From contig JASMAB010000001.1 in the NCBI GenBank assembly GCA_030754585.1, forward strand, positions 6,523 through 70,522: a stretch of DNA of 64,000 nt, in the 5' to 3' direction. Under the pieces are notes generated by a model. The model saw only the letters and a list, made by a program, of their open reading frames with translations. It did not search any database and was not told the origin of the DNA. Each line of letters begins with the position of its first letter. Position 1 is the stretch's first letter. The DNA is from Nitrososphaerales archaeon (GTDB lineage Archaea; Thermoproteota; Nitrososphaeria; Nitrososphaerales; JACPRH01). Below, piece by piece: positions 6,439 through 59,780 of this stretch. The translations under genes and the position numbers were made by a program.

Positions 6439-7554
6439 TCACCTTTTAGATAAAACCTCATAAAGGTTTTCCATTTTTGCCATTTCTGTCCGGTGATTTA
6501 GTCTCTTTTCAATGATAGCTTGATTAATTATACCAAATCTGGTTCTTTCTTCTTTATTCTCAAGTAAATAGATGATCTTTTCAGCCAATGATTCAATATC
6601 TTTACTTGTAAAAAGAAAACCATTAACCCCATTCTTCACCCATCTCTTATTATCTCCAAAATCTGTTATAATAACTGGTACACCACAAGCCATTGCTTCT
6701 GCTGTACTTGCTGCCAATCCTGCGTCTGATAAGGATGTAGATACATATATGTCAGCTGAGGCAACATATTTCGCAACTTCCTCGCTCGGGATTGACCCTA
6801 CAAAGTTCACATTCTTAGAGACTTTCAGTTTTTTAGTTAGAGCCCTCAGAAATACCCCTTGAGACCCTTCTCCAACAATTACAAACCTTGCTTTTGGAAC
6901 CTTTTTTAAAACTATTCTTACAGATTTAACAAAGGTTTCGATATTGTAGATAGGTTCAAGATTTCTAAGACTCATAATAATTGATGAATCAATAGCACCT
7001 AATCTTGCTCTTAATCCCATACTTCTTTGCTTTGGATTAAATTTCTGAGTATCTGTTCCAAAATATACCAAATGTATCTTTGAATGAATTGCCCCAAGTT
7101 CATCTAAAGCTTTTATCATATGTTCTGCATCACACGTAATAAGATCAGCTTTTTTCAAAGCATATTTCACCATATATCTGAGTATTCTAAATTGGTCAGG
7201 ATTAATCAAAATATCTGAACCCCAAGTAGTAAGTACCATTGGATGATAATTTACTAACGCTGCAATGAATCCATAGTGCGAAGCATAATGAGCATGCACC
7301 ACATCAGGTTTTTCGTCTGCCAATATTCGTCTAACACCATGGATGGAAACGGGGGAGAACACATATCTAAAAGCAGAATCTGCACTAGTCAAAGGCATTC
7401 GGATTCCACCCATTAGATTATACTGCTTAACACTTATTGTATCATTTATTTCACTTGTTATTGCAAATACGTCATGTCCTCTAAGCTTGAAGTAGTTGAT
7501 CCATCTTTCAGTGTGGCTCGACTTACAGTCAGCAAGATACGCGATTTTCATCAC
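6439..7554 (-). CDS. glycosyltransferase, GT-B fold (GT4-like)
   Basis: 371 aa. The C-terminal segment SLSDAGLAASTAEAMACGVPVIITDFGDN is typical of the GT4 EX7E region. Confidence 0.85.
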   Translation of the reverse strand: MMKIAYLADCKSSHTERWINYFKLRGHDVFAITSEINDTISVKQYNLMGGIRMPLTSADSAFRYVFSPVSIHGVRRILADEKPDVVHAHYASHYGFIAALVNYHPMVLTTWGSDILINPDQFRILRYMVKYALKKADLITCDAEHMIKALDELGAIHSKIHLVYFGTDTQKFNPKQRSMGLRARLGAIDSSIIMSLRNLEPIYNIETFVKSVRIVLKKVPKARFVIVGEGSQGVFLRALTKKLKVSKNVNFVGSIPSEEVAKYVASADIYVSTSLSDAGLAASTAEAMACGVPVIITDFGDNKRWVKNGVNGFLFTSKDIESLAEKIIYLLENKEERTRFGIINQAIIEKRLNHRTEMAKMENLYEVLSKR

Positions 7555-34496: not shown

Positions 34497-34601
34497 CGGG
34501 CCCGGAGGGATTCGAACCCTCGACCCCCGGCTTAGAGGGCCGGTGCTTTGAACCAGATGATAATATTCTTCATCGGCCTATCCATACTGAGCTACGGGCC
34601 C
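34497..34601 (-). tRNA. tRNA-Arg(UCU) with a 30-nt intron in the D-arm (non-canonical position)
   Basis: The reverse complement folds as GGGCCCG TA GCTC AGTATGGATA G[30-nt insert]AGC A CCGGC CCTCTAA GCCGG GGGTC GAGGG TTCGAAT CCCTC CGGGCCC G. No CCA is encoded. A T6 run follows the 3' end. Confidence 0.8.
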
Positions 34602-34797
34602 AGCTGCCTGATTATAACATTGCTTTTTTAGAGTTTTGGTTTGAAACACCTCCTTTTAAAAAGGAAAACGTGCTATCTAACCCTTCTACAGTCAATCAAA
34701 TCTAGACAATAATACTTTGTATTTCTTCAAGATTAATCCATAGTTTTTCACTGGATATACTAACTGAGATTTAGCCAAGAAAAAGAAAATAACATCC

Positions 34798-58077: not shown

Positions 58078-59427
58078 TTGATGATACCTGAAAATGAACT
58101 TGTCGAATCAAGCAGATTTGCAGTTAATACTGCTATTAAAAATGGGGCAGATAGCGCTGAGGCATATAGTGTTTCAACAGTTGAAACCGAAGCATCAATT
58201 GAACAAAATGATGTGAATCTCGGTAAGTTTCACCAAGGATCAGGGATAGGAATAAGGGTCCTAAAAAATGGAGCTCTTGGTTTTTCCTCAGTAAATACAT
58301 TAAATCAAGAAGAAATTATTGAATCTGTAGATACATCCATTAAGATCGCTTCTAGGGGTTCGTTTGATCAATACAATATTCTTCCAACCACGAAAGTTTC
58401 ACAAAAAATATCAGGTATTTATGATAGAGAAGCACAAGATTTCAAATCAGAAGATTCAGTTAAGAATGCTGTTGAGATGCTGAAAACTGCAAGAAGTTAT
58501 GATAATAGGGTAACGGTTGACAGTGGAGCATTCAATAATTCACTAAATTCAATCGCAATAGTGAATTCTAATGGTGTAGAATGTGTAGAAACTATCAGTA
58601 ACTTCACGTGGTATGTTATGGGAATGGCAATTGATGGAAAAGAGGTTTCTAGTTTTGATTTTCAATTTGGTGGGAGCCACCATTTGAAAGATATAGCAGT
58701 AGAGGGCACAGCAAGAAATTTCGCTGAAAATGTGGTGAAATCTCTCCACTCAAAGAAGTGCCAGCCATTCAAAGGAACACTCATCTTGAGCCCACATGCA
58801 GTTGCTGAACTTATTGTACCAACATTTGTAAATTCTATTAATTCGAATAATGTTCAGAAAGGACGCTCCAGTTTTGCTGGGAAAATAGGAAAAGAAATTG
58901 CTTGTAAGGAATTGACAATAACGGATGATGCAACTTGGTCTGAGGGATTGTCTGCTTCCAGTTTTGATCGTGAAGGGGTTCCACATAAGAAATTAACCAT
59001 TATCAATGAAGGCGTTCTAAAATCGTATTTATACAACACCTACACTGCTTGCCGTGATAAAGTAAAAAGCACCGGTCATGCATCTGGAGATGAAGAGTCT
59101 TCACCTGGTGTTGGTTCAACTAATGTTATCTTCAAAAAGGGAAAATTAAATTTTGATGATATCCTAAGTGAAGTTAAGAAAGGAATTTTCGTTACTAGAT
59201 TTTCGGGGAATGTTAATCCTGTTAGTGGTGATTTTTCAGGAGTAGTAAAAGGTGGTCACTTGATAATTAGTGGGGAAAAGATTCATCCGTTAAGGGAGAC
59301 CCTTATTGCAGGAAATATTTTCGAGTCATTACATAAAATTTCAGGTATTTCAAAGGATAGGGAGAAAATATTCAATATCCTTGCACCATACATTAGGGTA
59401 GAAGGCGTTTCAGTTACCAGCGGTTGA
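58078..59427 (+). CDS. pmbA: PmbA/TldE-family protein (TldD partner)
   Basis: 449 aa TldD paralogue lacking HExxxH. It abuts the tldD stop. The ATG at 58081 is likely. Confidence 0.85.
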   Translation: MMIPENELVESSRFAVNTAIKNGADSAEAYSVSTVETEASIEQNDVNLGKFHQGSGIGIRVLKNGALGFSSVNTLNQEEIIESVDTSIKIASRGSFDQYNILPTTKVSQKISGIYDREAQDFKSEDSVKNAVEMLKTARSYDNRVTVDSGAFNNSLNSIAIVNSNGVECVETISNFTWYVMGMAIDGKEVSSFDFQFGGSHHLKDIAVEGTARNFAENVVKSLHSKKCQPFKGTLILSPHAVAELIVPTFVNSINSNNVQKGRSSFAGKIGKEIACKELTITDDATWSEGLSASSFDREGVPHKKLTIINEGVLKSYLYNTYTACRDKVKSTGHASGDEESSPGVGSTNVIFKKGKLNFDDILSEVKKGIFVTRFSGNVNPVSGDFSGVVKGGHLIISGEKIHPLRETLIAGNIFESLHKISGISKDREKIFNILAPYIRVEGVSVTSG

Positions 59428-59463
59428 AAACCGTATATAGTAAATATTCCAATCTTTCGATTT

Positions 59464-59550
59464 GAGGTTCTTCAGGTGTTCAGTGCAGCATCGACGGGCA
59501 ATCTGACCGTAATGCGGGATGAAGAATACGTGCTGAACCCTTGGAACCTC
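59464..59550 (+). ncRNA. candidate structured RNA (GC-rich nested hairpin) upstream of tRNA-Ala; strand uncertain
   Basis: It is 87 nt with 46 G+C (53%) in a far more AT-rich context. The termini GAGGTTC/GAACCTC pair. Inner helices are AGG-GTTCAG/CTGAAC-CCT, GCAT/ATGC and ACGG/CCGT. Confidence 0.3.
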
Positions 59551-59601
59551 ATCTGTTTATTGATGAAACCTTAAATCATAAATGGCAAATGTTCAGCATA
59601 T

Positions 59602-59694
59602 GGGCCGGTAGTTCAGTGGTAGAAATAGTCAAAAAACTGATACAATATCTGCCTCGCACGCGGAAGGTCGGGGGTTCAAATCCCCCCCGGTCCA
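59602..59694 (+). tRNA. tRNA-Ala(CGC) with a 21-nt intron in the D-arm (non-canonical position)
   Basis: The fold is GGGCCGG TA GTTC AGTGGTA GAA[21-nt insert]T A TCTGC CTCGCAC GCGGA AGGTC GGGGG TTCAAAT CCCCC CCGGTCC A. The G3:U70 Ala identity pair is present. Confidence 0.8.
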
Positions 59695-59780
59695 CTTCAT
59701 TATTGAGCATAACATCTCCAAAAAAATATTTTATCCAAACTAATAAAATGCATTTTGGAACAATAATTCCGTAGTAATGT

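Follow-up and report, generated by a model that had tools for sequence, protein, structure and literature searches.

What is encoded in the short interval between pmbA and a gene for tRNA-Ala in a 64-kb stretch of DNA from a Nitrososphaerales archaeon (contig JASMAB010000001.1; the whole stretch is called the window below)? A reading of the sequence alone, made without database searches, had pointed there to an 87-nt element (positions 59464-59550) as GC-rich, self-complementary and a likely structured RNA. Comparison with relatives shows that the element is a real small-RNA gene under selection, conserved across the Nitrososphaerales (Thaumarchaeota), a group of ammonia-oxidising archaea. The RNA matches no family of Rfam 15, and no description of it was found in the literature searched. 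Few archaea are as abundant on Earth as the Thaumarchaeota, whose small-RNA repertoire is, to our knowledge, almost unknown.

The G+C content of the element, recounted, is 46 of 87 nt as had been stated (52.9%, against 37.5% in the whole window), which ranks it around or above the 99th percentile (50.6%) when every 87-nt window is considered; the 99.9th percentile is 54.0%. The + strand folds with a minimum free energy (MFE) of -33.8 kcal/mol (z = -3.88), a value equalled by none of 200 dinucleotide shuffles; the - strand gives -30.1 kcal/mol (z = -3.12). Two pairings read earlier from the letters, GAGGUUC(U)/(G)GAACCUC at the termini and the helix AGG-GUUCAGUGC/GUGCUGAAC-CCU, are both present in the MFE fold. 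The element contains no open reading frame (ORF), and the ORF at 59541-59774, which overlaps both the element and the tRNA, is spurious, as had been supposed. The Infernal search against Rfam 15, suggested at that stage as a check, matched no family: there were zero families at gathering thresholds for the window element and four relatives, and noise only at E <= 10, the best being sR60 with 12.7 bits against a threshold of 50 bits. No account of such an RNA in Thaumarchaeota was found in the literature searched, nor was the sequence found there. The statement that the element is not a tRNA also held: ARAGORN and the Rfam tRNA model match a cloverleaf (T arm and anticodon arm) only at 59602-59695 and none in the element, and a tRNA or transfer-messenger RNA identity was rejected.

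A family of small RNAs conserved across Nitrososphaerales

A scan of a genome collection identified a Nitrososphaerales metagenome-assembled genome with a PmbA 85% identical to that of the window and the element downstream. Contigs carrying PmbA homologues at 88-50% protein identity were then collected, with no sequence pattern imposed. The element was present between pmbA and tRNA-Ala(CGC) in every lineage fetched at 61-88% PmbA identity (L001-L008 and L013). At 50% identity (L011 and L012) it was found downstream of pmbA with the tRNA not adjacent, and at 54% (L009 and L010) no element was found at the pmbA-adjacent position. The lineages collected in this pattern-free manner share the core GC-W-W-CGACGGGC-R-A-W-C-N-GA-CC...GG-R-AU-GA-N-GA. 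When this core was used as a pattern to scan metagenomes, 93 loci were retrieved, of which about 59 distinct sequences also carry the flanking helix; the remaining matches are GC-rich coding sequence. The 59 members form about 27 clusters at 80% identity, come from seawater, soil, freshwater and hot springs, and in some cases sit outside the pmbA context. A covariance model gives them 41-85 bits, against at most 33 bits for the false matches to the pattern, and detects exactly one copy per locus; a search of the window and of about 0.67 Mb from related loci found no further copy. In the hot-spring clade (L015, L017, L020, L032, L078, L079, L086 and L091) the neighbouring gene for topoisomerase VI-B has its closest named relatives in Nitrososphaerales.

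Identity to the window element is 94-97% in L001 and L002 and 84% in L005. In L002 and L005, where the element is 97% and 84% identical, the tRNA is 96% and 89% identical and third codon positions of pmbA are 76% and 52% identical. Across lineages from the sea to hot springs, the conservation of the element equals that of the tRNA next to it; Rfam has no entry for it.

A covarying helix closes the RNA

The window copy is closed by two helices, P0 and P1, separated by a small internal loop. The parts outside the conserved core are the following.

59464-59471, + strand: 5' strand of P0, GAGGUUCU; from the MFE fold; retained within the window clade (L005 has one mismatch), whereas in other clades a different outer structure, often resembling a bulge-helix-bulge, takes its place
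59472-59473, + strand: UC, the 5' side of the P0/P1 internal loop, opposite U59542; matches the position of the 3-nt 5' bulge (AAU/AAA) of relatives
59474-59486, + strand: 5' strand of P1, AGGUGUUCAGUGC; from covariation in 59 homologues
59487-59491, + strand: spacer AGCAU, which varies in relatives (2-7 nt); a weak mini-hairpin can be closed by pairing between its final two bases and 59501-59502
59526-59529, + strand: linker J2, AUAC; variable, A-rich, 2-7 nt in relatives
59530-59541, + strand: 3' strand of P1, GUGCUGAACCCU; from the MFE fold and covariation; contains a second CUGA (59533-59536)
59543-59550, + strand: 3' strand of P0, GGAACCUC; from the MFE fold

All 13 pairs of P1 show two-sided changes among the 59 homologues, in a model-guided alignment that was itself fitted to the structure; compensatory changes, the check that had been proposed for this element, were thus found throughout the helix. 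In the same alignment 89.8% of cells pair, compared to 31-39% when the partner strand is slid by 1-3 columns, and none of 500 shuffles reaches the observed value. A core of seven pairs, each with compensatory changes, was also recovered by RNAalifold on a MAFFT alignment made from sequence only. The strands of P1 are wholly different between clades (GGUGUUCAGUGC/GUGCUGAACAC, GGCGCAGCCCAAC/GUUGGGCUGUGCU, UCGGUGCAUGG/CCAUGCACCGA, GCAUGCAGGA/UCCUGCAUGC and AGCUCACUUAA/UUAAGUGAGCU). Combined with the distribution of the family, the compensatory changes in P1 support the proposal of a structured non-coding RNA and rule out a decayed coding sequence.

The inner hairpin that had been drawn from the single sequence, GCAU..ACGG[loop]CCGU..AUGC, does form in the window sequence and is not kept in relatives: over the 59 homologues it pairs no better than shuffles (61% vs 59%), its pair A44:U60 is formed in 12 of 48 sequences, and of the five substitutions that distinguish L001 from the window, three break it. 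It was rejected.

One member has an unusual layout. L075 (3308-3406, - strand) has unrelated AT-rich sequence where the outer part lies on the 5' side, and a longer spacer (UUUUUAAAAAU); P1 and the core are intact, which suggests a local rearrangement tolerated by the RNA.

A kink-turn hairpin with C/D box identities

Part of the core has the layout of a canonical kink-turn, CUGA-CCG...CGG-GAU-GA-AGA (59503-59525), made of the following parts.

59503-59506, + strand: box-D-like CUGA, the non-bulged strand of the kink-turn (GA at 59505-59506)
59507-59517, + strand: C-stem, with CCG at 59507-59509, loop UAAUG at 59510-59514 and CGG at 59515-59517
59518-59525, + strand: bulged strand, with bulge GAU at 59518-59520, sheared GA at 59521-59522 and AGA at 59523-59525
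59519-59525, + strand: box-C-like AUGAAGA, which is AUGANGA across the family

The tandem GA/GA pairs are invariant across members. The bulge is always 3 nt long and reads R-A-U in 59 of 59 sequences (G in 45 and A in 14). Its AU, like GA and CC/GG, was imposed by the pattern used in the scan, but all of these are also kept in the six pattern-free synteny lineages. The third pair of the C-stem shows 16 double changes (GC 23, AU 11, UA 4), and its cap varies from 8 to 26 nt with loop sequences unrelated between members; the substitutions that separate the window from L001 lie in this loop. Position 3n:3b is paired in 38 of 59 sequences, and in L005 and L006 the change of CUGA to CGGA is coupled with that of GAAGA to GACGA, so that U-A at 3n:3b becomes G-C. 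A small CGG/CUG hairpin returned by RNAalifold was not adopted because it involves only bases fixed by the pattern and clashes with the kink-turn.

The motif matches box C at 6-7 of 7 positions and box D at 3-4 of 4, and four members carry an exact AUGAUGA. The order CUGA ... AUGANGA is that of the internal D'/C' boxes, in the form of a full kink-turn with a C-stem and not a K-loop. The strands of the loop below it are unequal: J1 consists of 2-7 variable and 12 invariant nt and J2 of 2-7 variable nt. In place of a terminal box C and box D joined by a short stem, the ends of the RNA form a helix of 10-18 bp without GA/GA pairs. The alignment therefore agrees with the sequence-only reading in its description of kink-turn or C/D-like pieces without a proper terminal box C. 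Two of those pieces had been placed differently. GGGATGA had been read in the wrong register: what is conserved is the bulge GAU followed by GA-AGA (AUGAAGA), and its partner is the first CUGA. The second CTGA (59533-59536) is not a box; it belongs to helix P1 and becomes UUGG in L007. A strict regular expression detected no canonical C/D small RNA (sRNA) in the window, and a scan of 0.72 Mb with the kink-turn hairpin for paralogues bearing other guides returned coding false positives only.

A conserved stretch complementary to the decoding centre

A conserved stretch lies immediately upstream of the CUGA.

59492-59502, + strand: conserved stretch CGACGGGC-A-A-U, the proposed guide; invariant in the six pattern-free synteny lineages

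Counted upstream from CUGA, its bases are W, A, R, C, G, G, G, C, A, G and C. In most members it includes the octamer GACGGGCG, the reverse complement of positions 1400-1407 of small-subunit (SSU) rRNA (CGCCCGUC), a stretch that is universally conserved. In the window GACGGGC (59493-59499) is antisense to SSU 1401-1407, and G59498, the fifth base upstream of CUGA, would face C1402. The rRNA scan covered four complete or near-complete archaeal operons, which are not thaumarchaeal (a tRNA is present in the spacer and the thaumarchaeal primer signatures are absent). SSU 1400-1407 was the sole match common to all four operons and to all guide variants, with eight contiguous Watson-Crick pairs, or seven for the window variant; guide positions 1-2 and 12 showed no rRNA complementarity. 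Resemblances to the 23S A-loop (GUUCGCC..) and to helix 89 (H89; AUCGACGG) are weaker, do not extend to all guide variants and are expected by chance; they were discarded.

Cytidine 1402 is a known target. 2'-O-methylcytidine (Cm) has been reported at this site in E. coli (Cm1402), P. abyssi (Cm1369), yeast, human and plants. The C1402 equivalent receives its Cm under the guidance of U43, snR70 and AtU43, and the archaeal sR12 is predicted to act likewise. In N. equitans Cm was detected at the equivalent position and no guide was found there. In archaeal C/D ribonucleoproteins (RNPs) the kink-turn is the site of L7Ae, after which Nop5-fibrillarin assembles. The guide of such sRNAs, 10-12 nt long and complementary to rRNA or tRNA, lies 5' of box D or D', and 2'-O-methylation falls on the nucleotide that pairs with its fifth base, counted from the box. 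Human RNU43 reads UUGACGGGCGGA-CAGA and the consensus of the element UCGACGGGCGAA-CUGA, with the same octamer at 2 nt from the box in both. This U43-like register, together with the fifth-nucleotide rule, points to C1402, and we infer that GACGGGCG would be directed at that nucleotide. As in the SNORD43/snR70/sR12 group, the element carries an antisense to SSU 1399-1408 placed for the C1402 equivalent.

Two side observations are added here. In two related soil loci (L097, about 6551-6582, + strand; L104, - strand, offset 1749-1780) the sequence AAUGCGCCCGUCGGGGCUGAACCGG is conserved at a distance of a few hundred nt from the element; within it lies CGCCCGUCG, a 9-nt perfect complement to the invariant stretch. 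This is probably coding sequence. A 1.46-kb metagenome contig (L111, 1-1461) carries an archaeal SSU rRNA, without the 1400 region and not thaumarchaeal by primer signatures; on inspection its SSU start is preceded by an apparent intra-SSU fragment, and towards its 3' end the rRNA gives way to unrelated sequence near position 1390. Possible origins are a chimeric assembly, an intron in the rRNA or a permuted intermediate of processing.

A tentative guide for Cm1402

We tentatively favour reading the RNA as an atypical C/D-type guide with a single kink-turn, directed at Cm1402. The kink-turn would bind L7Ae, through which Nop5-fibrillarin would be recruited; the invariant 8-9 nt 5' of CUGA would pair with the decoding-centre strand of 16S rRNA (1400-1407/8); and C1402, opposite the fifth guide nucleotide, would be 2'-O-methylated. 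The element would then be the functional counterpart of the eukaryotic U43/snR70 and of the archaeal sR12.

Several points weigh against this proposal and keep our confidence below the halfway mark. The antisense stretch is short. In the window clade, which makes up 14 of 59 members, A59500 replaces G, which leaves seven pairs, or eight if position 1408 is G. The invariant C59492 can pair only with G1408, and the four non-thaumarchaeal operons have A1408; G1408 is present in Ignicoccus and is said to predate the archaea-eukaryote split. Roughly estimated, chance alone would give about 0.3 antisense matches of 8 nt in some 4.5 kb of rRNA, and only the register and the identity of the site make the match notable. 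Archaeal C/D RNPs normally need both C/D motifs, and inspection clade by clade revealed no second GA/GA motif and no hidden terminal box C or box D. The basal helix and the size are unusual as well (about 90 nt, against 50-70 nt for the usual C/D sRNA), and no Rfam C/D family matches. Finally, the flanks of the stretch tend to pair with each other, forming the mini-hairpin WUCG-ACGGG-CGAW, and the stretch may instead be a structured loop recognised by another partner.

If the guide reading is true, it supplies a guide for one of the few rRNA modifications common to the three domains, it means that one kink-turn is enough for a C/D-type RNP to function when a helix takes the place of the second motif, and it provides a concrete case on the ancient or convergent origin of U43/snR70/sR12-type guides.

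A broader formulation, which is possible but on balance unlikely, is that the RNA represents an undescribed class of archaeal guide RNP, in which a stem-closed single kink-turn, in many lineages excised at a bulge-helix-bulge and possibly circular, either directs the universally conserved Cm1402 in Thaumarchaeota or uses the same antisense as a folding chaperone or checkpoint of the decoding centre in 30S assembly. It would imply that fibrillarin/Nop5 or another L7Ae-dependent enzyme could act from one kink-turn and a helix, as an exception to the rule of two C/D motifs.

We also regard it as unlikely that the RNA is an L7Ae-binding structural RNA in which ACGGG is the loop of a hairpin P2 within a three-way junction, recognised by a protein or RNA and serving a role other than methylation, for instance as a chaperone that holds the 16S decoding-site strand in 30S assembly or as the scaffold of an unknown RNP. 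The mini-hairpin shows some covariation: 80.9% of cells pair, compared to 11-45% when slid; column pair 34:52 is U-A in 21 sequences, A-U in 15, U-G in four and unpaired in 19; and column pair 41:51 is U-A in 44 sequences, with three double changes. The presence of one kink-turn only, in an architecture unlike that of a C/D RNA, and the A of the window clade, which weakens the antisense match, also fit a structural role. However, the outer two pairs of the hairpin fail in about one third of the sequences and the stem is 2-4 bp long; it is taken as a weak self-structure, possibly regulatory. Moreover, the box C/D identities exceed what L7Ae needs (the C-G pair and the trailing A, in part forced by the pattern), and the identity of register with U43 would have to be a coincidence.

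Transcription signals and linkage to tRNA-Ala

The upstream neighbour is a 449-aa ORF (58078-59427) of the PmbA/TldD family (PF01523, PF19290 and PF19289, from Pfam on homologues), and the element starts 37 nt past its stop codon (59425-59427). A gap of 51 nt separates the end of the element from the tRNA. Pfam, ARAGORN, Rfam and inspection thus agree with the placement between pmbA and tRNA-Ala given earlier. The features of this interval are as follows.

59426-59439, + strand: putative promoter of the small RNA, read from the sequence; purine-rich GAAAAC resembling a B recognition element (BRE) at 59426-59431 and TATATA at 59434-59439
59554-59561, + strand: U-rich tract UGUUUAUU, right after the terminal helix; retained in L001-L004
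59565-59576, + strand: promoter-like GAAAC and TTAAAT for the tRNA, at the boundary between the two genes and outside the small RNA
59602-59695, + strand: tRNA-Ala(CGC), 50.5 bits with the Rfam tRNA model, with about 22 nt inserted behind the D arm

The TATATA/BRE pair, which overlaps the stop codon of pmbA, has its centre some 27 nt before 59464; its spacing fits a candidate archaeal promoter, and an equivalent TAAATA or TTAAAA is retained in L001, L002 and L005. The tract UGUUUAUU is a possible termination signal, and AAACCTTAAATCA, in the promoter-like region of the tRNA, is shared by many relatives. Frequent G-U pairs in the conserved helix place the RNA on the + strand. With its own TATA/BRE and a second promoter before the tRNA, the window element appears to be a gene in its own right, about 90 nt long and on the + strand, and probably not a tRNA leader.

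The tRNA at 59602-59695 is tRNA-Ala by inspection (anticodon loop CUCGCAC, G3:U70). ARAGORN mistypes it as 'tRNA-???' with anticodon aaaa because of the non-canonical insert of about 22 nt; the tRNA-Ala(CGC) of relatives has similar inserts and is often called Asn, Ser, Met or '???'.

A tRNA-Ala(CGC) lies downstream of the element in most clades, and the sequence-only reading had raised the possibility of a processed tRNA leader. We consider it very unlikely that the element is primarily a cis-acting 5' leader of the tRNA-Ala(CGC) precursor, controlling processing, stability or expression of the tRNA. In L040 (608-760), L060 (2694-2861), L064 (5468-5657) and the hot-spring clade the gap to the tRNA is 3-20 nt, which leaves no room for a second promoter and implies co-transcription as a dicistronic precursor; RNase P cleavage would then create the 3' end of the small RNA. 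A processed leader thus fits these lineages and not the window and its clade, where TTAAAT/BRE lies between the genes and each has a putative promoter of its own. Furthermore, L011, L016, L022, L034/73/88/100 and L036/105 have the element and no adjacent tRNA, and inspection revealed no complementarity between the invariant core and the neighbouring tRNA-Ala.

A bulge-helix-bulge motif at the base of relatives

The base of the molecule differs between clades. In the window clade it consists of a 2x1 internal loop and the continuous 8-bp P0, and a canonical bulge-helix-bulge (BHB) motif (two 3-nt bulges on opposite strands with a 4-bp helix between them) is not found in the window copy. Many other members read YCCY-AAW-[P1]...[P1]-RGGR-AAR, and 15 of the 59 sequences have a canonical helix-bulge-helix-bulge-helix at the base of P1, where shuffling of the flanks predicts 0.66 (maximum 4). 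Its bearers include L013 (3902-3996), L019 (565-655), L031, L040 (608-691), L041, L058, L062 and L090. The central 4-bp helices differ by clade and covary (UCCC/GGGA, UCUU paired with AAGA, GAGA or GGGA, and GUCC/GGAC), and the hot-spring clade has the motif in an alternative register, GAAG/CUUC. The L022, L034 and L036 types have only P1 at their base. The first three G of the tRNA even form part of the outer BHB helix in L040.

From this motif, excision of the RNA by the tRNA-splicing endonuclease is predicted for the members that bear it, possibly with circularisation. Within the Cm1402 guide reading, RNAs of other lineages would be fused 5' of tRNA-Ala(CGC), released at the BHB by the splicing endonuclease, or both, and perhaps circularised; the BHB flanks and the tRNA-Ala fusion would offer a maturation route via that endonuclease and RNase P.

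The excess of BHB motifs, their clade-specific central helices and the non-canonical introns of the host tRNAs could also suggest a functionless, intron-like or mobile remnant bounded by BHB and excised by the endonuclease. This we judge highly improbable: there is a single copy per locus with none elsewhere in the window or in the related loci, conservation of the core at the level of a tRNA over some 27 clusters argues for function, and the window copy has no canonical BHB. As for a chance GC-rich hairpin, a terminator or 3' untranslated region of pmbA, which the 37-nt distance to the pmbA stop might evoke, or a decayed coding sequence, it is refuted by the compensatory changes in all P1 pairs and the distribution of the family, and also contradicted by the persistence of the element where pmbA synteny is lost, the absence of an ORF inside it and the TATA/BRE between it and pmbA.

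Comparison with known small RNAs

The closest parallel is that of SNORD43 (U43), snR70 and AtU43 (Rfam clan CL00059) and of sR12; in U43 the octamer GACGGGCG stands 2 nt upstream of a CUGA-type box as it does in the element. In U43 and in the element the guide lies 5' of the downstream box, in the D'-type orientation, and the N+5 rule leads to the same cytidine. The element differs from this group in having no terminal C/D kink-turn and no second guide, and in its 10-18 bp closing stem and length of about 90 nt; no Rfam model of clan CL00059 or of any C/D family matches it. The resemblance may reflect convergence on one target, and common descent is not claimed.

With archaeal box C/D sRNAs in general, the element shares the identities of box C (RUGAUGA) and box D (CUGA), the 3-nt bulge ending in U and a conserved stretch immediately 5' of the D-like box. 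Dicistronic tRNA-sRNA units have been described for archaeal C/D sRNAs, and some lineages of the element are likewise linked to a tRNA gene. Unlike these sRNAs, the element has a single kink-turn with a capped C-stem, effectively a circular permutation of the terminal C/D motif, loop strands of 14-19 vs 2-7 nt, and a long basal helix.

The basal stem, internal loop and apical kink-turn in the same orientation are features of archaeal H/ACA sRNAs as well, but the element lacks an ACA/ANA box after the basal stem. Its 3' loop strand is 2-7 nt long and not conserved, so that no pseudouridylation pocket can form. With no conserved ACA box and too short a 3' strand, an H/ACA identity was rejected.

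Finally, many relatives share the hBHBh' motif at the base of P1 with BHB-bounded archaeal RNAs (tRNA introns, pre-rRNA processing stems and the C/D sRNA in the pre-tRNA-Trp intron). The motif is not family-wide, however, and, unlike these RNAs, the element does not lie inside another gene.

Another GC-rich island in the window

The other non-coding GC-rich islands of the window had been equated with tRNAs. This was right in spirit; one of these islands, in an ORF-free gap at 34498-34606 (- strand), is an intron-containing tRNA missed by ARAGORN and by Rfam at the gathering threshold. Removal of an insert of about 30 nt after position 22 leaves a 74-nt cloverleaf with the anticodon loop CCUCUAA (UCU, Arg), in which an unusual C33 takes the place of U33. 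An 11-mer, GAUGAAGAAUA, is common to this insert and the element; about two such matches per window are expected by chance.

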